A DNA stretch of 64,000 nucleotides. Origin: Cetorhinus maximus. Lineage: Eukaryota. A model generated the notes under the pieces. The model did not search any database and had not been told where the DNA came from. It saw only the letters and a program-made list of their open reading frames with translations. Both the position numbers and the translations under genes were made by a program. How positions within the stretch are numbered: position 1 is the first letter of the stretch; every line of letters starts with the position of its first letter. Shown piece by piece: positions 3,697-59,999 of this stretch. Where the stretch lies: positions 63,612,001-63,676,000 of the forward strand of contig NC_135882.1 in NCBI RefSeq assembly GCF_964194155.1, read 5' to 3'.

Positions 3697-4568
3697 AGAA
3701 CAAAAACAACTGGGAAAACTCAGCAGGTCTGACAGCATCTGTGGAGAGGAAGACAGAGTTAACGTTTCGAGTAATTTTCAGGAAGATGGCCAACTTGTGG
3801 CCAGATGGCATGTTCACCATACAAGTCTCCCAAAACTGGAGGACCAAAAAGATGCCCTCCAGCACTGAAAGATTGGGAACCCTACCATCTGAGGTAGGTG
3901 CTGCTGAAATAGATAGGAGAGAGATGGCACCTCAAGATGGAGGTGCCCTCTGAAATAACTTCAAAAAGATAAAATAAAAAGTGAGCACAGCTGCCAGACC
4001 AGGATTGTGGAGGGGGTTCCCCTCTACATGGCGGTCTGTTGTCGTAACTGTGGTCCTATGACAAGTGTGGCTGTGGGTAAGAGGCTAATGTGCATGTTGA
4101 AGGACTTGTCACCCCCCCTGTCTGCCACTGGGAGACCGCCTCCATTCATTGTTCAGGTTATGGCCTCAGTGGCTTCAGCTGGGTCCCTCATGATGAGTGC
4201 AATATTCCAGTCATTGTCAAGAGAGCAGCCTTTATAGGTCCTTTCATTGGATTAAATGCTTAAATGGCTACCCGCCGCTTGCAAGCAAGAAGCCATCACC
4301 TCCGCACTCATCCCCACACACCCTGCCTGACCACCCTCCAAAGCAGCCTCTTTCAAAATGGCCCGGAGGTGGGAACATGTCGGCAAACTGGAATGATGGT
4401 CGGCAGTGGAAACCTGCTGTTCCACCCATCTCCAGTCTCACTTCTTCAGCTGAATGAAAATTTGGTCCATTAATCCTGTTTCTCTCTCCACAGATTCTGC
4501 CTGGCCTGAGTATTTCCAGCATTTCCTGTTTTTATTTTAGATTCCCAACATCGGCAGTATTTTGTTTT
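3697..4568. mobile_element. Inverted pair of Penelope-type pseudo-LTR repeats interrupted by a Harbinger-type MITE (~3769-4468)
   Basis: CTCAGCAGGTCTGACAGCATCTGTGGAGAG..CAGAGTTAACGTTTC at 3719-3768 and its reverse complement at 4470-4530. The insert ends are GAGTAATTTTCA and TGAAAATTTGGTCC. Confidence 0.6.
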
Positions 4569-40267: not shown

Positions 40268-43209
40268 TAAGTCTGTGTGGCCATTGTATCTCAGTTTCTG
40301 AAGTTTCACGACTCTCCTTGATTGGGTCCTTTTTTGAGGCTTGGAGGATTGGTAGTCTCAACTTGGACTTCTTTGCTCTGACTTGGCTGTTCTTCAGTAG
40401 AAGATGCAGTATTTAGTGTTTTGCTTGTTTGAGGTTCAACACTTGATCCTTTTCTTTTTCTCCTTGCTGTTCCCTGTCAATAGTTTCTCTTTCATGACAA
40501 GGATGTCATGGGTTTATCTTTTTCTTTGCATTGACGATGTTTCCTATCCTTGTTTATTGAATTGACGCTGATTCTTTTTAATGATTTGGTCCGTCATGCT
40601 TTGCCTTTAGAGCATTTTTTCCATGTAGCCCCTGGTTCCTGAAGTTTTGGGGAATCCTGGATTGTGGTCTCCTGAGGTGAGAAAGGTGTTTGAGTAACGT
40701 CTTGCTGCCTCTCCAATGTAGTTACCCTGATGTGGTAGGAAGGTCAGTATCCTCTAACATAGAAGAGGTGGACCTATATCTGATTTGGATTTGTTTCGAG
40801 TTCTGAAACCATTTGGGTATTTTCACCCTGGGCCACCAGTTCTGGTGGATGGGTCGGTGTGGATGCACTTAATAAGGGGTCAACATTGACAGATGAATGT
40901 GGGATTGTACTAACGTTTCTTATCACCTGAGTTTCAACTTCGATCCTTGTTGACTATTCTCCGGGTGATGAAGAGTCAGGGTGGAACTCAGCCACTCTTT
41001 GATCCAGCTGATCCATTTCCTCTTCAGGCTGAAGAACGTTACCTTCATCTGTTTGGGAAGAAGCTGGGTCCTCAGTAAACAGTATCATAAATTCTGCACT
41101 TAAGTCCAAGTCGAGCTGTTGGATGGTTTGACAATCTCCAACTTAGTATACTCAATGACTGTTTGTTCCTTGACATCTTCTGCTGTTTTGATGAGGTTGA
41201 GGGCAACACAGGAGTCTTGGCCCAGGAGAGAAAATTCCTGATTGCGAATTACATATAGTGTCTCCAGTATCTGCTTGTTCCCATATTGGAGTGGTTCTAG
41301 AAACGTGCCTAGTTTTGATCCATCCTGGGCCATATAATGGGGTGTCTGTTATCCACAGCCAGAGGTTGGCTAGCCACAGTTCTCTATCGGACAGGACTGT
41401 CACGCTTGCTCCTGTGTCTAATTTAAAATTAGTAATGTGCCCATTGACACATATGTCAACATTTAGGAAGGTATATCTGGGATCGTTAATTTGACCTAGG
41501 AAGCATTGTTGTTGTCCTTGGTGTGACTCTTCTATTTCTTTGATGTCTTTTTGTGTGAAGGTTCGCTGGTGATCCTCAGTATGTTTAGAGCTTTTTGATC
41601 TGCACATTTTCCCAAAGTGTCCCAGCCTTTTACAGTAGAAGCATTCTGCCATGCTTGCAGGACACTTCATGCCTGAGGCTTTTGGTGCCACAGCACTGCA
41701 ATCTTGAGTTTTAATCGCGTAAGGTCTTCTTTGACCTGGAGTGTCGTTTGCATTTCGTTGTTTAATGAGCTGTACCATGGTTTGTCTTCCAGTCTTAATA
41801 TTGATCTATTTTGCTGACGGACCTCAGATGTCTGACAATCTGTATCGCCTTCTCAAAAGTTAGATCTTCTTTGGATTGAAGCAGATCAGAAAGGGTATCG
41901 TCAGCTACCCCACTACTGTGAAGTCTCGTATCAGTTCAGACTTAAGATTACCATATTCACAGCCTTCAGCCAACTGATACAAATCATTGATGAAGGTTTC
42001 CACAAGTTCTCCAGGCTTTTGGATCTTTCTGTTAAACTTTGCTCTTTCCAAAATGTTGCTGCTCTGTAGGTTAAAGAAATGGTCAAAGGATTCTCTGACC
42101 TCTTGAAATTTGTCAGATGATTCATTAATACCTTGTCTGGCTATTACATTGTCAGCAATTGAATATACAGATATATTAACTTGCTCAGCCTCTGACTTAT
42201 TATTTAATCCTCATGCAATTCTGTGTCTTAAAAATCTGCTCCTCCATAGTGTTCTAATCTGTCTGGTCTGGCCCTTCCATCTTCCTGAATCATTCTGGAA
42301 AGTAAATTTTGAATCCATCGCTGTTTTCAGCTCAGGAGAGACTTGCCTTAAATTTTTTAAATGGTGCTGCAGTAATCGAGTTTTCTAGCGCTGTTCTGGG
42401 TTTTTCAGATAACCTCTGCTGTTACCAAGCTGCGTCAAACCTTCTCTGAAGCTCAGGAAAAATTGTCAAACAATATTAAGGTCAGTTAGTTACTTTGTCG
42501 CTGGAGGATTGAATTTAGTAGCAGGTTTTTTTTTTCTTCTCCCTTTTTTTCACCACGCAGCCACCATGTGTTATGGTGCCAACTCTGGTCTTGGGCTGCG
42601 TCATATTTCAAACTGCTCACTTAAAAATGAACCATCTCCCAGTTCTGTCTGGTTACAGCTCTTTGTTTAGAAGCTTTTTTTCAAGCCTTTTTCAAAGTTT
42701 GCTCACCCTTCCTCGATAGTTACTCGGTTCTTTGACTCTGCTTTTTGATTGGGATTTTCAATGAACGTCCACAAGCTATGGTCGAGTTCCTCTTGAGCTG
42801 CACAGTTGATTTCTTCTCTGACTCTCAGCCTCCATGTCTGTTATGTAGTTTTTCTGGAAATATCCAACTGTTTCATCAAAGTTTTCCGTTTTGGTGCATT
42901 TATTTTCAGGTCAGACTGCAGATTTTTCAATTTTTATTTATTTTTGGAGATTTCGGGATCATGTGCTGCTGCCATGTTGTATGTTACTGTGGTTGTCTAA
43001 GGAAGAGGTTCAGAAGCATAGAGTCTGAACAGTAACTATTTATTGTAGAACATAACTATGTACAGATAAACAAGACAGTAGGCTTCTTCAGTCCAAGCCA
43101 TGAGCTTTCTCCATTCTGACGTCTACTAGACTTCTACTAGTCATGTGACTCATCATGTGGACGGTAGTCCCACATTAACCCTTTCAGTCCTTAACACCCT
43201 AATACAACA
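40268..43209 (-). mobile_element. Internally deleted Gypsy (Mag-like) retrotransposon: 5' LTR 42975-43209, gag and protease
   Basis: LTR TGTTGTAT...ATACAACA followed on the minus strand by PBS-like TGGCAGCAG. Gag ERAKFNRKIQKPGE..FINDLY.LAE.CEYG; zinc knuckle CFYCKRLGHFGKMC; protease FKLDTGASVT. Confidence 0.8.
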
Positions 43210-44757: not shown

Positions 44758-45954
44758 ATGGGGATTGTGGTCTCCGGTGGTGGCACCTACTTTGAGGAGG
44801 AAGAGAAGGGCAGAAGGGAGAGGAAGCCAGGTGTCCCAATGCAGCTTCCAGGGGAGGGATCTGTGGGAGGAGAGGTGCAGGCACAAGGGGCGCAGGGCCA
44901 GCAGGAAGTCCAAGATGGAAGGGGCCGCATAAGACGCCACTATCCTGCTGCCAGAGTTTACAGGTGGTGATACTGCTACCTCAATATGTCTGAGGTGCAA
45001 TGCCAAAGGAGGCTCTGCCTCTTAAGGGAGACAGTGACTTCCATTTATCAAATGATTGGGCCTGAGATCAGCTCCGATGGTGTGGCTGGGCACTCCATGC
45101 TAGTGGCTCTGAAGGTCACAGCAGCCCTCAACTTCTATGTCTTTCCAGGGGTAAGTGGGTATCTTTGTGGAGTCTCCCAATCAGCTGTCCATAGTTGCAT
45201 CAAACTGGTGACAGAAGCTTTGTTCAGGCGGATACTGACCTTTATTCTTTACCGTACAGACGAGGTCAGCCAGGCTTAGTGAGCTAGAGGGTATGCAGCG
45301 ATTACTGGGTTCCCCCGCATCCAGGGTGCAGTCGACTGCACACTTGTGGCCCATCACTTCGCCAACAGGAAGGGATTCCACTCCCTGCACATGCAGGTAG
45401 TGTGTGACCACAAGGTACAGATTCTGCAAGTCTGTGCAAGGTACCCTGGCAGCACTCATGAAGCTTACATCCTGAGACACTCCCAGGTGTCAAGGTTCTT
45501 CAGTGCTCCAGCCCGACTGGATGGATGGCTGGTGGGTGACAAGGGCTATCCATTGAAAACGTGGCTCATATCGCCTCTCCGCCACTCAAGAACAGAGGCA
45601 GAGAAGTCTTACAATGCGAGTCATGCCTCTACAAGAGTGGTGGTAGAGAGGACCATAGGTCTTCTCAAGATTCGCTTCCGATGCCTAGACCGTTCAGAGG
45701 GTGCACTACAATACTCCCTAGAGCGGGTATCACTGATCGTTGTTGCATGCTGTGCTCTCCAGAATCTGGCACTGGCAAGAGGGATCCCACTGGAGGAAGA
45801 GGATCTTGATGCAGCTCCACAGGCCACAGACGATGAGTCCAGTAGCGAGTCAGGGCACGGTAAGGAGAACGCTGAGGCCATGGAGGTAGACCTCGGTAAT
45901 CTCCAGCGAGGCAGGGACATCAGAGACATCTTGATCCAACGCTCCTTTAGCTAG
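44758..45954 (+). pseudogene. Harbinger B transposase (HARBI1-like), disrupted
   Basis: QGAVDCT, FANRKGFHSLHMQVVCD, YPGSTHEAYIL, GWLVGDKGY, RVVVERTIGLLKIRFRCLD. The D/D/E residues are retained, but stops at 44968 and 45277 and frameshifts are present. AATAAA at 46059. Confidence 0.92.
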
Positions 45955-49880: not shown

Positions 49881-51231
49881 CATGTCTCAGAGGTGACCCA
49901 GCAATCTGTTAACTATTGCACCACCTGGTGCTTCACAAAAGGGACTGTTTACCTCAGAATAAACATTTCAAGTTTTTTTTTCAACAGCTTAAATTCTAAA
50001 ATTGGGAGAGGACGTTAGGTGAAATAAACAAAACCGATTTTCAATCAGTACTTTTATAGAGAAATCTGAAGCCTAAATAAGAATTGTTGAAAACATTTAA
50101 CTAGATCACTGGTTAGTAATAATTATATAGATCTGTATGCTGCAAACAATGATAAAACTGTTTTTAATCATGTCTGCTGAAAATCATCGCATCAAATCTG
50201 ATGTTTATATGAAAGAGAAGGAAAGTTAAATATCTTGAACAATTCTTATTTGGTTAGTATATTTCCCCGTAATATGCTGATACATAATAACTTGACTGTA
50301 CCTCATATACCTGAAAACCAGGAGTTAAATAGGCTGTGGGAGGGAAAATGGTAGGAATGGGGAAATTAATACACTGTCCTTATTTAATAATTTCGCACAT
50401 GTCCAGTTCTTGTCAAGTACAGGGGATTAAAATCAGGGCATAAGTCTTCAAATTATGTGTTACTTCTTAACTGTGCTTTTGTAATTTGTTTGATGGGGGA
50501 TTGTGAAACAGAATTAATGTATGGCCTTTGCAATCACTGTAATTATTACTTAATGTGACCTGCTGGGCAAACTAAACCTGCAAGCACCTCATTCGCTCAG
50601 TTACAGCAGGACTTACTGCTGGAAAAGTGACTGTGTCATCAGGTTTATTAAATTCTTGTGCTTAACTGCTTTTCTAATTTAAAAAAAAACAAACTTGATT
50701 TTCATTTCTCCATTTTATAAACAGTCCTATCAACAAATGTGATATTTTGTGTTCTTGAAGCCAGAATTTTAAAATGCTGTTGTCTTTCTGTGACATTTTA
50801 CTGTGCAGCATTTGCTGCTGTAAATGGTGGACTTATAATGCTCCTTGTTTGAATACTAATCATGAACTCCCATTCCCAACAAACAAGATCAATGCTGAAC
50901 AAATTGTTGTTATTTGAATTAAGAGCATCTTGACTTTTTGAATTCCTGAAGGAGTCCCAAAAAAATTCTGAAATCTGCCAGAATTTGCCCAATGCTGCTG
51001 AAGTGATGATAAATAAGCTGACCAAATATTCTTTACGCCAATCACTATCAGTTCCTGGAAATTCATTTTTAAAATTTGAACTGGTTGCAATAAGTGACAT
51101 TTCAGCGCATCAGCTATGAATTAGATTTAGTCACCTTTTAATAATTACATATGTTGCTCCATCTGTTCTCATTCTTTAAATTGTTGTTTTGTTTGTTTGT
51201 TTTTCAGATATAGCTGATAAGTGGATTTATC

Positions 51232-52803
51232 ATGATAGCAACAGGAGGGCTTCTTCGTATTTCAGCCAGAAGACAAGATTCCTTTCGATCACGTAATCGT
51301 GTTATTAAGCACAAAAGGAAAGCAAAAAAGAAATGCAAGAGTGATGTAGTGGTGGTGAAAGGCAAATTGAAGCTGTTCTCCATTTCTGGACTGATTGCTG
51401 CATTTGGAATCCTGGTGTTGTTGGTAGGGATAGCAATGACAGTGATGGGCTACTGGCCTAAGGGCACTGACGTTTTTGAGACTATCAAGGTCCAATCTTA
51501 CAATACCACCAGTAACACTAGTTTAGAGACTACAACACTGGAGATTATTTCTAATTTTTTAGCCAGCTACTTACATTCTGAAAAGCTGAAGGTTTTGGGA
51601 CCCCTCATTATGGGAATTGGTATATTTTTGTTTATCTGTGCCAATACAGTGCTTCATGAAAATAGAGACAAGAAAACCAAAATAATTAATATACAAGACA
51701 TCTATTCTACAGTTATAGATGTACATAATTTGAGGACAAAGGATTGTGGGCCGCTTAATGGTTTTGTCAACTACGTGCAGTCCAAAAGCATGGATAATCT
51801 CAAATCTCCTGATTCTTTTTGTGCAGCAATGTTGGCCAAAAGTACCTGGCGGACACCCGTTGGTAATACTGTAAAGCCTATGGATCCAAAAGAAAATGTT
51901 GGTAAAAAGCACTGCGATTTTGTAGCAAACTTGCAGCAACAAATCCCCAAAGATAGAAAGACATTCTCCGATACTGTGTACAGTATTTGCAGAGACAGAA
52001 TCAGAATGAATGATAAAAGCCAAATGCCCCAAATGTGCGGAGCTAAGTCAATTGTCACTTCTTCCATTAGTGCATTCACACTGCCTGTCATCAAACTGAA
52101 CAACTGTGTCCTGGAAGAGGGTGCTGCCACAAAAGGGAAAAATGGGAATGAAACACAGACTTCAGAAAAGTGTAATGAAACTCAACAAGCATTTGACCAT
52201 TTTGCCTCTGATCAGATTGAAACGATTGATTCTATTTCAGCGGATATAACCATAAGCAATGATCACCTTGGAGATAATAACCAGAGCGTAGAAATGGAGA
52301 CTTCAAATACCTCATGGTTAAATGGTAACCAGTTGGTATCTAACAAAAGCTCTCAAAATCCCTCTTCCCAAGTGTCCCAAATTTCTCCTGTTCCATTTCA
52401 GAGAACAGGATCCAATCTTTCTCTCCACACTTTATCAATTCACTCTAAACTCATGAATCTTGATGACTATCCTTCCACATCCACGATGCAGGATGAAGGG
52501 ATAGATCCAAGCTGCACACGTTTAGATTGCACCAACAGTAAGGGCTACATAAAGTTAGGTGATGAGGACTCATTTGAGTCTAATGTTGTACTACCAGAAG
52601 CCATAGACAAGTCTAGTGATGATTGTACAGAGAATCTTAATGAAGATATCATACAAGAAAGTATAATGCCAAGCAATGAACAAAAGGTGGATAAACCTCA
52701 AAGGTGTGTTCAGAGACAGTACACAAAGAGAGAGAAGTTGCTCATGATTTCCAGTTCACACAATACCCTACAAATAGATGATGATGAAATTGATAGTAAT
52801 TAG
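51232..52803 (+). CDS. TMEM200C: Transmembrane protein 200 family member, TMEM200C-like (DUF2371 N-terminal two-TM domain), single coding exon, 523 aa
   Basis: N-terminus MIATGGLLRISARRQD...DVVVVKGKLKLFSISGLIA..GILVLLVGIAM.V.GYWPK, second TM LHSEKLKVLGPLIMGIGIFLFICANTVLHENRDKKTKIIN and C-terminal QRQYTKREKLLMISSSH match vertebrate TMEM200C as recalled. Polypyrimidine acceptor TTTTCAG ends at 51207; an in-frame TAG at 51211 fixes ATG 51232 as the start. Confidence 0.9.
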   Translation: MIATGGLLRISARRQDSFRSRNRVIKHKRKAKKKCKSDVVVVKGKLKLFSISGLIAAFGILVLLVGIAMTVMGYWPKGTDVFETIKVQSYNTTSNTSLETTTLEIISNFLASYLHSEKLKVLGPLIMGIGIFLFICANTVLHENRDKKTKIINIQDIYSTVIDVHNLRTKDCGPLNGFVNYVQSKSMDNLKSPDSFCAAMLAKSTWRTPVGNTVKPMDPKENVGKKHCDFVANLQQQIPKDRKTFSDTVYSICRDRIRMNDKSQMPQMCGAKSIVTSSISAFTLPVIKLNNCVLEEGAATKGKNGNETQTSEKCNETQQAFDHFASDQIETIDSISADITISNDHLGDNNQSVEMETSNTSWLNGNQLVSNKSSQNPSSQVSQISPVPFQRTGSNLSLHTLSIHSKLMNLDDYPSTSTMQDEGIDPSCTRLDCTNSKGYIKLGDEDSFESNVVLPEAIDKSSDDCTENLNEDIIQESIMPSNEQKVDKPQRCVQRQYTKREKLLMISSSHNTLQIDDDEIDSN

Positions 52804-53688
52804 TAATAGTATAATTGTACATATTTGGGTTCAGACACAAAAATGCAGTGAAAGCTGTAACAAATGAAAAGTATATGTCACTTTTCTGTAGCTATTGATT
52901 ACTGAATGTCAGTCAGGCTCCAAAGACTCCTAAATTATTATTGTGGAACTAAGCATCCAGTTTCTTTAGTTGCTTCCAAATGTAAATGCACCAATCATTG
53001 GGTGGCAATTGTGTATCCCAGTTAAACACCAACTGAGAGTTTTTAACATAATCGGATATTTGTAAACAGATTGTGAACATTGAACATTCAGTCATCCTAG
53101 GATTGTAGTTTACAGTTTTGAACCATCAAAATAAGCCAATTAACTTGTACTGAATTCTATACTCTGATAAATCAAAGGATATATAGATATCTTGTATAAG
53201 CACATAATGCACTAAACCACACATAAATGTGATATTGAAAAGCGTTCAGTGTGTCATTTCATAATTAAGTGTAAGAAATAATTTGCATTTGTGGTCACTA
53301 ATAGAGGTCTAAACAAGTAATATTTTTTGTAATCCTGAATTCTGTATCATGCCTCATTGCTTGTGTTCTCTAAATTGTTACCATGCTCAAATTATATATT
53401 TTTTCTCATATGCATCCCCCTTCACACATTTTTATCATCACAGTAGTCTGTTTTTCTAATGGACTTTACCCTTAATTCTGGCCTAAGTGCCTGGATTCCA
53501 TACCTTGTTACATATACTTGCCCTGTTCACAATTTGTGTCACTACAGTCAGTTTATTTAAGAAAACATGGAATGAGAAAACTATTTGGTCCATCGAGTGT
53601 ACTTTTGTAAACTAAGTATAATAGTGTCATTATGTATTTGCCTGGAGTTAAATTGAAAAATATTGTTAGCGGGGTAGATGGTCTCTTG

Positions 53689-53694
53689 AATAAA
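53689..53694 (+). terminator. Candidate polyadenylation signal AATAAA for TMEM200 (alternatives near 53907 and 53954)
   Basis: AATAAA hexamers at the end of the unique AT-rich 3' region, before repeats resume. Confidence 0.3.
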
Positions 53695-53955
53695 AGAGTA
53701 AGGGAGCTGTTGTTAGTTAAATAAGGAAAGAAATCAGAGCCTTTGAACCATAGGCCCATGACCAGTAAGCTTAATTTTGGTTGAAGGGAAGATATTGGAA
53801 AAATATAACAAAATCAAGGGAGTGGTGGGGGGTAGCGTTGTTATTGAAGATGCCTAATGAAGCTTTAGAAGGAGGTGATGCCTCATAATTGTAGTTATTT
53901 CTTAAAAATAAATGTAACTAGTAGATGAAAGAATTCCAGGAGGGATGTTGTTTAA

Positions 53956-54047
53956 TAAAATGCTGGAAGTACTCAGTAGATTTGGCAGCATCTTTGGAGA
54001 GAGAGAGACAGAGTTAACCTTTCGGATCGATGACCTTTCATCAGAAC
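53956..54047 (-). mobile_element. Penelope-type pseudo-LTR fragment containing a minimal hammerhead motif (54013-54047)
   Basis: Minus strand reads GTT CTGATGA AAGGTCATCGATCC GAAA GG TT AAC; same repeat family as 3697-4568 and 56549-56810. Confidence 0.65.
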
Positions 54048-54190
54048 ATGGATATTGTTTACTTGGATTCACAGAAAACCTCTGAAAAATCTTTGCATGT
54101 ATGGCTTTTTAAAAAAAATTATATCTTTTATGACTTTGGAGATAACAGAAAATATTTACAAATAGTCATTTGGTAGTACAGAACTTAAAC

Positions 54191-54445
54191 ATTGCTGAAA
54201 AAAAGAAAAATACTATTGAAGCTTTGTGTCTTGCACTCATCAGGGAAAACAATTTATACTGCATGAGAAGAAAGTGCTGATTGGTTAGCAAGTGGACTCT
54301 GATTGGTAGAGGTGTTGCCATGGAGAATGCAGCAGAGAACATTTAACTGTTAACTGTGGTCCCCTTCCTGTTGGTTTATCTTGTGTAGCTGTCCTGATGA
54401 GTGTAAGATGAAAAGCTTCAATAGTATGTCTCTTTCTCCAGCAAT
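54191..54445. mobile_element. Palindromic Penelope-derived non-autonomous element with hammerhead-like motifs on both arms
   Basis: Arms ATTGCTGAAAAAA..ACTATTGAAGCTTT..TCTTGCACTCATCAGG and CCTGATGAGTGTAAGATGAAAAGCTTCAATAGT..CAGCAAT are inverted repeats. Confidence 0.65.
54389..54424 (+). ncRNA. Minimal type I hammerhead ribozyme motif (slightly decayed)
   Basis: CTGTC-CTGATGA-GTGTAAGAT-GAAA-AGCT-TC-AATAG: conserved core, short stem II, palindromic AGCU in place of stem III, UC cleavage site, stem I with one mismatch. Confidence 0.6.
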
Positions 54446-54559
54446 AGAAAATATTTACTTGATCAGAATTGTATAAATTAAATAATTATTGATGGGAAGG
54501 TTTCAGATTGGGGCCCGGTGACATGTTTCTCTTTCTAAGGGTTCTATACTGAATTGTTT

Positions 54560-55110
54560 ACTGTGATGAATTATACGACTGAATTTGGCAATGATGCACA
54601 AAACGTGTAAATTTTGGTAATAAAACGATTGGTAGATTGCAAGTTGATTTAGATAAATAAATAGCTCATAAATGGCAAAAATGTTATTTAATCTGGAGAG
54701 GTGCTGTGTTATGCACTTGCGGCCAGCCAAACCAAGGCATGTCTATTTAACGCATCAAATTAGTGGACCAGGAAAGGAACTTGTGTGTAGTCACTGATCA
54801 ATTATTAAAAGTTCCTGAGCAATGTAAGGTACCTGAAAGTTCTTGCAATTACTGCTAGGTAATAAGGGCTCTGTACTTATGATTTATGGAGTTTAGGTTC
54901 ATCTGCACTTAGCGTATTGCGCCCAGTTTTCATACCATGTATATTAATGAATATTGAGGCTCTGGAGAGACTGTAGAGGGCAATGTGTAGAAACCTAAAC
55001 TTGGATTGGCTTCAGGAATTAATTCATTTTGAGAAACATTGATTCAGTGATGATATGAATGAGACATTTAAATCTATGAAATAATTGGATATAGGAGATT
55101 TGAATCTGGC
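54560..55110 (+). mobile_element. Very old CR1 RT fragment
   Basis: EFGNDAQ (FADD remnant); HLAYCAQF; LERL. Confidence 0.5.
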
Positions 55111-55115
55111 ATTTG

Positions 55116-55221
55116 GGAGATGAAATTGGTCTCTGATAAAAGGTGGAACAGGCAATAGCAAAGCAGCAGCCCACTTTAACCATACCTGTTTTGTCCTTTG
55201 CTGAAGACCAATTTCACCCCC
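55116..55221. mobile_element. Short Harbinger-type MITE, TSD TTG
   Basis: GGAGATGAAATTGGTC / GACCAATTTCACCCCC inverted ends. Confidence 0.6.
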
Positions 55222-55571
55222 TTGAAATCAATAGCTAGCAGGCTTGCATATAAAATTTCTTAGCAATTAATCAGCTCAGATTCCAGGAACTATTTAGTTT
55301 TGCACAGATTGTTGCCTTTGCAACCAATTACCATTCCTTTTAAGATGTGTCCTGAAAAGGATATTGGAAAGTGATACAGTTATGTAGTTCAGTAACAATA
55401 GTCTGCTGGAGTTTTCTTGATTGCCTTATCAATTTCTTTGATATGGCCGCTTAATTTCACCTCCACAAAAATATACCACTATCAGAGCTAAGGAGGCCGT
55501 GGTTCAAGACTGCACCATCTAGTGGTTATAATGGGTATTGACAAGCCTCTTTTCTCTTCTGTCTTGTCATA

Positions 55572-55688
55572 GGGTAAAATTTTACACCAGCGGGATTTCA
55601 CGGTCCCGCCAAAGTCAGTGGACTTTCGAATGACTTGCTGCATTTTATAGCTCTGCCCCCACTGCGACGGGGTCATAAAATTCCACCC
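55572..55688. mobile_element. Short Harbinger-type MITE
   Basis: GGGTAAAATTTTA / TAAAATTCCACCC, flanks ATA/ATG. Confidence 0.65.
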
Positions 55689-55715
55689 ATGATCTTTATA
55701 ATCTAACCAGTCATG

Positions 55716-56358
55716 GGGCAAAACATTTAGCTTGGTGGGTGGGCGCGCGCCCAATCCGCTCGAACGTAAAATGATGCGCGTTGACGTGGGGCGAACGTCC
55801 TGACGTCAATGCACAGTCGCGCGATATTTCGTTCGGCAGGCACATGCCGGAGTTGGCAGCGTGCCCGCTAACAATTAAAAGGCCTGTTAAAGCCATTAAA
55901 TTATCAATTAAGTTGAATTTTTTGCTGCCCGTCCAAGCTTACAGTTGGTGGGCAGATTTTTGGGAAACCTCATCCATGGTTGGGATGAGGTTTCCTAAAG
56001 CAAATAAAAATGAAATTAAAATATTAAAACCTGACAGATTCACATGAGGGGACATGTTTCATGACATTTTTTTTTAATAACTCTTCATCTCCCTGAGGCA
56101 GCTCTGTGCCTCAGGGAGATTATGAAGTGCACATGTGCGAAACTCACGCTCGCCCTACTCGCAGTCCCTCCGCCCTCCCCCCACCCATGCCCACACAGGC
56201 AGTGCTTAGCGCTGCCGCTCGCATTTCATGCTGGGCAGGCCTTAATTGGCCCGCCAGCGTGAAATCGCATTCCCGCCCCAATTGTGGGCGGCGGTTGGCT
56301 TCCCGAACGCCCCTGCCCACCCCCGCCAAGCCCGCCCAACATGGATGAAATTCTGTCC
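55716..56358 (+). mobile_element. Harbinger MITE, TSD ATG
   Basis: ATG|GGGCAAAA...AAATTCTGTCC|ATG; both ends colinear with Harbinger B. Confidence 0.88.
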
Positions 56359-56548
56359 ATGGATTTTGCCCCACTGTTATGGCACAGCCGATGGTAAATG
56401 CTGAGCTGCAGAAATCCCAAAAGGAAACTTGAAACAATTGCCACAATTGTTTTGCAATTTGTATAAATTTCAAGGTGCGTGCCTTGAATTCAGTAGTAAT
56501 AAGATCACCGAGTCTTACAGGTTTCTTACAAAACTAAATTAAACCTTT

Positions 56549-56810
56549 GCAGGTCTAACAGCATCTGTGGACAGAGAAACAGAGTTAAGGTTTTGAGTCC
56601 GTATGACCCTTCAGAAGGGTCACTGAACTTCTTCAGAAGGTTACTGAACTATACAACCATAACACTTCCCAATATCCTTCTGAAGAAAGATCATACGGAC
56701 TCGAAACATTAACTGTTTCTCTCTCCGCAGATGCTGCTAGACCTGCTGACTTTTTCCAGCATTTTCTGTTTTTATTTCAGATTTCCAGCATTTGCAGTAT
56801 TTTGATTTTG
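56549..56810. mobile_element. Palindromic Penelope-type element with 12-bp TSD AATTAAACCTTT and hammerhead-like motif (56678-56713)
   Basis: TSD at 56537-56548 and 56811-56822; inverted arms ~56549-56618 and 56676-56746; TT CTGAAGA...GACTC GAAA CATT AAC. Confidence 0.75.
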
Positions 56811-57144
56811 AATTAAACCTTTATTAATAAAAGAAATAATTTTAAGTACCCACATAGATCTACAAATTACTACTATGATAACTTCTAAATCCCCTCATTA
56901 ATCTAACTCCCAGTTACACTTTTGTTAAGGCAACAGTAAGACACACAGATTTTAAAAGACCCAGGCAAAGAAACATGATACCCTGAACAATCCAATTCAA
57001 AGTGAGATTTCTTAACTTCAGTTCTTTGTAGACCACAGCTTGAGGCCTAGATGCTGGAGGCTTTTTCACACTTGTTTTAGGTCTTAGAATTCCTGCCCTT
57101 TGCTCCTTTATACATATTTTCCCCTTTGAATGCAAATTCCCATT

Positions 57145-57826
57145 GGGCAGAATTTTCTGCCTGTCAGGCACCGGGAGCAGGCACAGGCTGGTGCGGACCC
57201 GATTGTCGCCCCCGATTGGGTCTGCACCGCCATTTTACGTGGGAGGGCCAATTAAGGCCCGCCCAGCATGACACGCACCCAGAAGCACTGTGCGGTCCCT
57301 GTGCGGGCAGGATGGGGGTTGCCTAAGTCGGGAGTGCGCTCTTTCGCGCATGCACACAAAAGAGTGCAGAAATCACCCTGAGGCACAGAGGTGCCTTAGG
57401 GAGATTAGTTTTAAGTCCAAAAAGTGTAATAAAATGGCGAGAAATTTTTTATGACATGTCCCCTCATGTGAAACTGTCACATGAGCTGGGACATGTGCAT
57501 TAATTTTAATTTAAAAATTTTTGAAAATTTTAAATCATTCATGAAACCTCATCCCGCCCCTGCATGAGGTTCCATGAAAAATGCAAAGGCTGTTTGGGCT
57601 CTTCGCCTGCCCGCCAACCTTAAGGTTTGACGGGCAGCTCAGCTGATTGCCTTAATTGGTTTTTAACAGGTCTTAATAGGCCTTTGACAGTTCGGCGGGC
57701 GTGTAGCCGAACTGAAAATTTAAATGACGCGTAGAGACGTCGGGGCACACGCCCAACATCGCCCCGCGTCATTTTACGCCTCGGTGAGCGGCCCCACCCC
57801 CGCTCGCCAAGCCCAAGATTCTGCCC
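57145..57826 (-). mobile_element. Harbinger MITE, TSD ATT
   Basis: ATT|GGGCAGAATTTT...GATTCTGCCC|ATT. Confidence 0.9.
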
Positions 57827-59999
57827 ATTGTTTCATTATGTCTTTGGACTTTACCTCTCTATTAATAAAAATTTCTCATAGTACCAATTTTACCAGTAAC
57901 CTTTGGGAAAAATAAACACACTGTTTCTTAACTTCTCCTGGTTAGGTCAAACATTTCACCCCTCCTTTGAATTCAATCTGGTCTGGTTTATTTAAAAATG
58001 TAAATGTTCCCTGTACACGTATGTTTACCGACTTAACATTTCAAACCTAGCTTATCTTCTGTTACATCAAAGCCTTCAGACCAGCTGCCTTTAATTCAAT
58101 TAAGTCACACACGCACGCACACACCCCCACACCCTCATAGACACGGACCCCACTATTACTCTACAATAAATTCCAATAACATTATGAAAATTATTAAATC
58201 TTCTGGACACCAACCCTTAATCTAAAGGGACGGTATGCATATGTACCCCCAATCAAAAAGTAATGAAATAGCAAGACAAGCAAGGTAACTCAAAAAACCC
58301 AAAATATTTATATCTCTACTGCTGACTTTGGACCTTGATAAATGATACTCTCTCGAAACCCAGCAGCATTGGAAATATCCTATTCTGGGGAATATCTGAC
58401 CGTCATAGTATATGTCTATCCAATAATTTTTAGTTATGTTTCCAATTCGGCCATCCTTTGAAAGAGTTAATCAACAACAATCGCTTTAACTGGAGGCAGG
58501 TTTCACAAATCCAATTTTCACTTACTGCTTTCTCTGAAATGTGCCTTCTCTTAGTATAATTATTAAGCTATCTTTTCCTTCTCCACTGACCTGACAGCTT
58601 GATGTTTGCCAAAGTGAATTCAACTTTAACAGCAAATGAAAAGCTGTTCATCTTTTTATAGTTTGTTCTCGTTCCACTCAGTTTTCTGTTGAACTGAAAA
58701 TCAAATACAATAAACATGAAAGCAATGTTACTTCTTAATCCGTGTTCAATAAAGTAGGTTACATATTAATTGGGGAACAGCTCTGAAGTAGAACTGCTAA
58801 ATACCAATGTCAAACAGATTAATGCTTTAAGTATGTAATTTTCTTACAAATTTCTTGATTATTTGAAAAAAACTTGCTGTGTGTTTCAACTAATTTAGTA
58901 CATGCCAGAGAATTCAAATTCCTTGATTTGGTTGAAGAATGCTTGGAACCTCATTTGCAGTGATGCAGCACATTCAGAAACCCATTTTTCTGATTGATTC
59001 ACAACATTATATCTCTTAGAGTTTTCGATACTCGCCAACTGTTTTATAATGAGCCATTGTTACATTTGATTTCTCTAGTTTTCCTGCGCAGCATGCATAC
59101 TAGTTAGCATTTCTCACTTTTAGTAGGTCCACAATTTTGACCTGATAGTACTTTCTACTTAAAATGTTCATGTACATATATGTTCCTACTTTTATCACAC
59201 TAAACAAGTGTTCTCCACATATTTAACACCGATAAATCAGGTGTTCAAAAGACTATAATTTTAACATTGGTTCAGAAATTGAGTTTCTGGTTCTAAGGCA
59301 GAATTTACGTCAGAACATTACACCATTCATGACTATGCCTTCACTGCAATCCCTATGAAATTCCAGCAATTTAGTGTGAAAGCATAGCAGTAGTGAAAGG
59401 GGGACAAATGTTTACATAGAGAACAAAACAAAATGTAATAAAATCAACAGCTTCATCACAAGCTGGAAAATCAATATCTGATTTATATTTATTCACAACT
59501 CCTTTATTGAAGAGCAGTGCTGCATGCCTCAGTGCACTGCAATGGCACTCGCTATAGCACTGCACGACATGATGTTTTCATATTTCAGAAATTTCATAAT
59601 TTTTCAATCACTTGACTGCTATCCATTTATAAACTCACTGTAGAAAATATTAAAGGTCTCAATATGTAAACCTTCATCTGCACTGAAATATGTTATAAAT
59701 TATTGAAATTTTGTCTAAAAATACAGAGAGAAAAATATACTTGGAACATTTACAAAATCCTATGCCCTAGGAATTACATCATGGTTTACTGGAAGATGAG
59801 TATTTCATACATTGATTTGAAATTCCTCTCTAGATTATTTCAGTGACAGTATTATCATATTGAACAATAAATGAGCTAATGCCTCTGATAAAGTTGCATA
59901 GAGGGAGATTTCAGATGACCATGTTAAACATTCATTTTTCCAACAGTGAAACTAGAGGGTTAGATTTCTTTAAGTTACCAGAAACAGATTTTTTAAAAC

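Follow-up and report, generated by a model that had tools for sequence, protein, structure and literature searches.

Penelope-like elements (PLEs) typically carry an inverted, 5'-truncated copy and, at one of their ends, a tail of 30-40 bp (PMC8557442, legend of Fig. 2). The Pen2 and Pen2a elements of Adineta vaga are described as having head-to-head inverted pLTRs with a TATA-like box and a palindrome at the inner end; pLTR and tail together encode the first codons of an RT-EN ORF of ca. 840 amino acids, and in Pen2a the tail is 31 bp and the TSD 9-10 bp (PMC3846280). Metazoan PLEs also harbour minimal type I hammerheads with a palindromic 15.2-16.2, a G10.1-C11.1 pair and a helix I of 4-6 bp. 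Many of these motifs are single and some form opposite-strand pairs 100-700 bp apart, and the activity reported is low even for dimers (Cervera and De la Pena 2014, PMC4209133). Cleavage of hammerhead dimers has been reviewed (PMC6765202), and cleavage is described as compatible with one or two pairs in helix II (PMC544870). In Poseidon PAc of Anolis carolinensis, the hammerhead lies at the pLTR-ORF junction, targets are AT-rich, and the tail is inside the ORF start between two end points; the Poseidon protein cuts and extends both strands, starting at the two sites that bound the tail, and the hammerhead, which depends on the protein, is not required for insertion (Frangieh et al. 2024, PMC11167929). 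The non-LTR animal retrozymes are short, non-coding, PLE-related units with a type I hammerhead, which form head-to-tail arrays of a fixed monomer and yield circles (PMC7229834; 10.64898/2026.07.22.740005).

We analysed an insertion in a window of Cetorhinus maximus DNA (the window is the whole stretch of 64,000 nucleotides that was analysed). Its layout and the presence of opposite-strand minimal hammerheads are already published features of PLEs. It resembles Pen2 and Pen2a, as described, in all the respects given above, with a tail of 29 nt and a TSD of 13 bp, whereas its arms are too short for any coding body, and the host and the family differ. The motifs of the present family share the type, palindrome, closing pair, helix I length and arrangement of those in PMC4209133, but have a 2-bp helix II, a 5-nt loop and a UUC triplet, as compared to the 7-8-bp helix II of the Schistosoma motifs shown there, and have no extra base between A9 and G10.1. 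The position of the hammerhead, the AT-rich targets and the placing of the tail are as in PAc. In the present family the cut precedes the likely ATG by 6 nt, or by 3 nt in one subfamily, whereas that of PAc lies 26 nt after the start codon. Reverse transcription in PAc begins 111-118 nt into the ORF, whereas the tail of the present family ends ca. 48 nt into its own ORF. Unlike retrozymes, which it resembles in being short, non-coding, PLE-related and hammerhead-bearing, the present element is a head-to-head one-off with opposite-strand motifs and no monomer release. No prior report of hammerheads in shark Penelope elements was found in the literature, and Repbase or bioRxiv supplements may name the family.

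Structure of the insertion

The insertion is 285 bp long (54162-54446) and contains the 3' end of an EN+ PLE twice, as 5'-truncated copies placed head to head (Table 1). The preliminary description presented the locus as a palindrome of ca. 255 bp. An inverted repeat is indeed present: arms at 54191-54244 and 54393-54445 are 83% complementary across 54 nt, and none of 200 shuffles folded as stably (z = -7.07). Only these outer ca. 54 nt pair, and the 148-nt middle, which represents two different portions of the PLE end, is not mirrored; the structure is therefore an inverted repeat around a spacer and not a 255-bp palindrome. The 29-nt tail and the 13-bp TSD had been overlooked. The two TSD copies match perfectly, and none of ca. 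200 control windows contained a repeat as good.

Family positions are given on a ruler in which 0 is the usual short 3' end. The minus-strand arm including its tail (54162-54349) corresponds to about -187 to +29 of the family, with 188 nt as compared to 217 nt in the reference. CCAAT and TATA-like boxes lie upstream of the hammerhead in the family and are kept here in the left arm only. In the long copy L093, the tail runs on into the element body and translates as the PLE N-terminus, aligning with the N-termini of the proteins P0002, P0009 and P0014, so that the start codon is likely 54426-54428, 6 nt behind the predicted cut.

Table 1 Features of the insertion and of the neighbouring gene. 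Positions are those of the window.
Feature	Position	Strand	Remarks
TMEM200-family coding exon (context only)	51232-52803	+	ORF; PF10177 DUF2371, E 6.4e-61
TSD, left copy, 13 bp	54147-54159	+	AGAAAATATTTAC; identical to 54446-54458
Two extra bases separating TSD from tail	54160-54161	.	offset -2
29-nt PLE tail, on the sole tailed arm	54162-54190	-	family +1 to +29; ca. codons 7-16 of the PLE protein
Inverted 5'-truncated pLTR copy	54191-54356	-	family ca. -190 to 0; ca. 30 nt deleted at 54244/54245
Dead hammerhead remnant	54213-54247	-	CUGAUGA retained; GAAA changed to ACAA; stem I 5' strand deleted
Putative pLTR promoter-like motifs	54253-54306	-	antisense to TMEM200
Two CCAAT boxes and a TATA-like box	54302-54306, 54280-54284; 54253-54259	-	family -144, -122; -97
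Head-to-head junction	54338-54357	.	at the family palindrome; 13 of 14 letters retained at 54338-54351
Sense 5'-truncated pLTR copy, tail-less	54357-54446	+	family -86 to +1
Decayed minimal type I hammerhead	54389-54424	+	core letters intact; G10.1-U11.1 replaces G-C; C2.1/A1.1 mismatch
Likely PLE ORF start and first codons	54426-54445	+	same position enters the PLE N-terminus in L093
TSD, right copy	54446-54458	+	identical to the left copy

The surroundings of the insertion were compared over 52810-55400 with assembled contigs from four runs on related organisms, which were guessed to be RNA; none of the 22 runs is registered as RNA. The contigs of run X1 were ca. 97.5% identical to the window (31 differences in 1232 nt) and enter the element from both flanks, so that the insertion is shared with that relative. 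The relative carries the same T>G at the seventh base of both TSD copies (54153 and 54452). Such a parallel change was unexpected, and conversion between the copies may explain it. Besides, the left arm of the relative fits the right arm of the window better than the left one.

Parent element

In the 4-Gb genome, the element corresponds to a large repeat; 40 of 4429 candidates were scored with the element itself and 150 of 32021 with the endonuclease end. Longer copies extend upstream into a frame for the endonuclease C-terminus and further into RT motifs. L091 and L092 span most of P0002 (841 aa), and in L093 residues 4-837 of P0002 are covered in six frame-shifted pieces; these three copies also carry an inverted 5' copy, with a partial tandem in L093. 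Among the 150 scored of 32021, there was no intact ORF and the longest open frame was 317 aa. This piece has 57 homologues of 558-968 aa, the best 51% identical, of which 56 are unnamed and one is labelled 'uncharacterized'. All three homologues tested matched both RVT_1 and GIY-YIG in Pfam. P0002 matched RVT_1 with an E value of 1.4e-8 and GIY-YIG with 1.4e-4, and P0012 scored above both cut-offs; the family's own broken ORF pieces gave no RT or GIY-YIG match in Pfam (0/2; 0/6). A comparison of P0002 with the PDB returned three weak RT matches and nothing else, and a search of the phage collection gave no match. The suggested Penelope origin, with an autonomous element sharing the same termini, thus held in that RT-EN copies were found, all of them broken. 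Since none of the ORFs found is intact, knowledge of the parent comes from broken copies and homologues up to 51% identical.

An ORF with RT and GIY-YIG, an inverted pLTR copy, a tail at one end and a TSD, which mark EN+ PLEs, were all found. Inspection by eye of L058, L094 and P0002 showed an RT-EN linker without the CX2-5CxxC zinc finger and an endonuclease with CCHH. By the clade criteria given in PMC8557442 for the linker finger and CCHH, this combination points to the Penelope/Poseidon clade. The element is an unnamed PLE family member of an already known type.

Family loci and insertion mechanism

We analysed 89 loci of the family (96 minus 7 duplicates or shorter versions), each excised with 1.5 kb per side. 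Fold-backs were present at 33 of the 89 loci, a count in which long fold-backs are under-represented because of the 1.5-kb limit; they comprised 9 of the 30 loci found with the element, 10 of the 29 found with the endonuclease and 14 of the 30 found with the intact motif. All 33 had distinct junction pairs, and their lengths ranged from 232 to 3689 bp. Exactly one arm was tailed in 29 of them (half expected, p = 5e-6); four broke this rule, and in four others one arm was little longer than the tail. The 3' ends fell into two groups, at -2 to +14 (67 ends) and at +21 to +29 (57 ends), with 46 of the 124 at +28 or +29. Of 32 fold-backs (L093 omitted), 26 had a TSD, 8-16 nt long.

Based on these results, the locus is very probably one dead EN+ PLE insertion, in which two 3'-end copies lie head to head between TSDs and were likely written from both nicked strands. 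The identity, the ends, the TSD, the private junction and the one-sided tail were directly established. The insertion would have proceeded as described below. The endonuclease, through its GIY-YIG domain, would make a 13-nt staggered cut in the target, and each free target 3' end would prime reverse transcription on the element RNA. One copy would start at the far site (+29, including the tail) and the other at the near site (about 0); both would stop early and then be joined at their inner ends. This course agrees with the results for the Poseidon protein in PMC11167929. A literature search judged by titles returned no report of twin priming for PLE insertion.

The inversion could instead have arisen by self-priming, that is, fold-back synthesis at the internal palindrome on one template, which was proposed for such inversions in PMC3846280 and which we consider rather unlikely here. 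The long arm ends, on its inner side, at the family palindrome, and 7 of 31 short 5' ends, in a group selected by pattern, lie at -169 to -178, adjoining the palindrome. Self-priming should, on the other hand, produce mirror-image arms as far as the junction, whereas the arms differ by 100 nt; the junction pairs vary freely across fold-backs; and the tail on one arm is not explained by self-priming alone. Self-priming would alter the mechanism and not the identity of the element. The seven 5' ends beside the palindrome (L062, L064, L065, L067, L077, L085 and L087) may, in their own right, mark an RT stop or an RNA start.

The fold-back had also been regarded as a non-autonomous retrozyme-like unit. 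The idea that such a unit, retrozyme-like or MITE-like, is copied as such by Penelope proteins draws on its being short, non-coding, hammerhead-bearing and TSD-flanked, on a junction common to one other locus and on the derivation of retrozymes from PLE pLTRs (10.64898/2026.07.22.740005). It is already largely refuted and most improbable. Among the 40 scored matches to the query, only the window itself was full-length, and of 41 matches in a junction-spanning search, two spanned the junction, namely the window and L002/L098, in which the junction is nearly the same. The tail of L002 is on the short arm, opposite to that of the window, so that L002 seems to be an independent insertion at a preferred junction. 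All 33 fold-backs differ from one another in their junctions, and no same-strand tandem ends within 100 nt occurred in the 89 loci; the head-to-tail arrays that characterise retrozymes (PMC7229834) were absent there, and opposite-strand motifs were found in place of tandem monomers or a fixed monomer copied as a unit. On the evidence of the 89 loci and the 41 matches, the fold-back is not a mobile unit.

Hammerhead of the family

The family was examined for the proposed minimal type I hammerhead with a palindromic stem III (AAGCUU) in a set of 73 unselected copies, each with at most 9 mismatches in 34 positions and gapped copies left out, from 88 loci scanned. The proposal was borne out: the majority state comprises a 5-bp stem I, an intact CUGAUGA, a 2-bp stem II closed by G10.1-C11.1, an intact GAAA, AAGCUU and a UUC cut. 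The genome contains 180 exact copies of the intact 34-nt motif, as compared to 0 for the control. The fifth pair of stem I, which lies outside the search pattern, can form in 89 of 103 copies (28/30 selected, 61/73 unselected), as C-G, U-A, G-U or A-U; the shuffle mean was 50 and none of 5000 shuffles was as high, while the variation at this pair amounts to three or four subfamily states only and stem II is invariant. Where pair 3 is a G-U wobble, as in one subfamily, stem I is extended by a sixth pair (19/28, vs 8/70). When stem pairs were counted from the alignment, the result did not reach significance (37 of 500 shuffles), since selection had made the core invariant and the informative column had gaps in 13 rows. 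These observations, with an intact core and stem I pairing across subfamilies, suggest that the family ribozyme is genuine.

The motifs appear to decay neutrally once inserted, since catalytic positions were retained in 680 of 730 cases and loop positions in 538 of 584 (p = 0.52). The core letters are kept in 28 of the 73 copies, G10.1-C11.1 in addition in 5, and the closing pairs as well in 2. An accumulation of 5' ends at the cut site (family -25) was sought, and 1 of 68 short ends lay there; this is a weak test, as most arms had been selected to reach further upstream. In L061-L090, the partner sequence of the stem I 3' strand occurs once more behind that strand, overlapping the likely start codon, and does so in every subfamily. 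The 3' strand thus has two possible partners and may form either stem I or a short local hairpin; this choice may act as an off-switch or may result from the ATG.

Hammerhead motifs of this copy

The hammerhead letters previously quoted for both strands were found in the sequence, with the plus core at 54394-54413 (predicted cut at 54419/54420) and the minus core at 54243-54237. The plus motif has 4 of 34 mismatches, which equals the median of the unselected copies, and the minus motif has 6 of 34, having lost G12 and A13 together with the stem I 5' strand, which falls within the ca. 30-nt deletion. The differences had been attributed to CpG decay. This applies to three changes at family CpGs, C11.1>T on the plus strand, G12>A on the minus strand and G1.1>A on both arms, and not to A13>C, the loop C>T or the deletion; 1.3 C>T is a subfamily state present in 28 of the 73 copies. 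Although the plus core letters are intact, neither motif combines an intact core with intact closing pairs. The active dimer was calculated at +3.7 kcal/mol for the plus and +8.3 kcal/mol for the minus motif, while that of four intact copies was at -7.7 to -11.1 kcal/mol, yet 2.7-7.5 kcal/mol above their own minimum-energy dimer. The earlier suspicion that this copy is inactive agrees with the damaging changes in both motifs, which are predicted to be probably inactive.

In an RNA containing both arms, folding predicted that the core pairs with the opposite arm with a mean probability of 0.93 for the plus and 0.83 for the minus motif. The antisense arm is thus predicted to bury the core in either transcript, so that the head-to-head pair would silence the motif. 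Such a pair cannot provide the same-strand partner needed for a dimer. Monomer folding does not tell live from dead motifs, as the stem I probability was close to 0 in all four intact copies as well. The claim that the element places a self-cleaving motif in transcripts from either strand was not upheld, as the second core is a by-product of the inverted copy and the arms are predicted to pair with the cores. An Rfam scan of 50000-58000 (E <= 10) returned 8 weak matches and no hammerhead, and the bare pattern CTGATGA-N8-20-GAAA occurs 3 times in the window as compared to 1.16 expected. Since the pattern is not rare and Rfam gave no hammerhead match, the case for the ribozyme rests on the family and not on this copy. 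The hammerhead here is a decayed passenger and would be buried in a long hairpin of any read-through RNA. The hammerhead of the parent is part of the pLTR, with the promoter-like boxes on one side and the start codon on the other, and likely shows weak cleavage, either in dimeric form or when assisted by protein.

Relation to TMEM200

The ORF upstream of the element matches PF10177 DUF2371, which we take to be the TMEM200 family. As noted before, the plus copy is sense to this gene and 1.6 kb past its stop: the ORF ends at 52803, 1.59 kb before the plus core. The position just after AATAAA signals was described correctly in that three precede the element; such signals are common here, with 10 in the 5.2 kb from 52804 to 58000, and two also lie just after it. 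The suggestion that the motif affected 3' end formation fared badly, since the RNA would end at the upstream poly(A) signals and not reach the motif. Because both motifs are damaged, the insertion likely does nothing to TMEM200 RNA.

Three main contigs of the run comparison end at 53217, 53243 and 53501, and one X1 contig runs from 54390 across the predicted cut to 55400, with 30 letters on the near side, one fewer than a bridging contig must have; contig ends are not transcript ends and were not counted as evidence. The comparison showed no site with many molecule starts or stops. Co-option of the insertion by TMEM200, through ribozyme cleavage of long 3' UTR isoforms, a dsRNA hairpin or an antisense promoter, might be argued from the sense orientation of a plus motif with all its core letters, the insertion shared with the X1 relative, the CCAAT and TATA-like boxes kept in the left arm and the co-opted 3' UTR hammerhead described for Clec2 genes (PMC6155905), but is hardly credible given decay at the family median, the loss of G10.1-C11.1 and of the pair beside the cut, an unfavourable active dimer with a core predicted to be buried, a dimer partner available only in trans and the three AATAAA upstream.

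Other repeats in the window

A second hammerhead-like core (54044-54020, within 53950-54045 on the minus strand) lies 120 bp upstream of the element; it belongs to a different repeat family, has a longer stem II and is on a single arm. A fold-back at 56549-56746 has a hammerhead-like core per strand and putatively resembles the family of the core at 54044-54020; related sequences are the inverted arms at 3724-4508 and a fragment at 55341-55396. Nested inverted repeats surround this fold-back at 56032-57479 (56032-56057 with 57454-57479, 96%; 56087-56121 with 57371-57405, 91%), and this arrangement resembles that of a non-autonomous DNA transposon with terminal inverted repeats. A DDE_Tnp_4 transposase piece (E 7.6e-33), presumably Harbinger-like, is located at 45283-45954 on the plus strand. 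Weak zinc-knuckle and aspartyl-protease matches, all under the Pfam cut-offs, at 41152-41805 on the minus strand probably represent a gag-protease fragment of an LTR retroelement. An AT-rich inverted repeat with 49-nt arms, 73% complementary, occurs at 50054-50272, ca. 1 kb upstream of the TMEM200 exon.

Implications

The locus itself matters little, being a single decayed copy of an abundant repeat. The family offers a countable test of the mechanism of Penelope insertion through its one-sided tails, variable junctions and TSDs of 8-16 bp, and a very small natural hammerhead with a 2-bp stem II and a UUC triplet, in which stem I is paired across subfamilies. We tentatively suggest that the tens of thousands of dead insertions may be a fossil record in which both nicked target strands were primed for synthesis on element RNA, obligatorily at two different start sites, and in which the ribozyme cut 6 nt before the start codon would strip the cap and turn message into template. 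If true, this reading ties the in vitro result of two start sites to the inverted-pLTR layout. Opposite-strand hammerhead pairs in such genomes would be by-products of insertion and not devices for cleavage in both directions.
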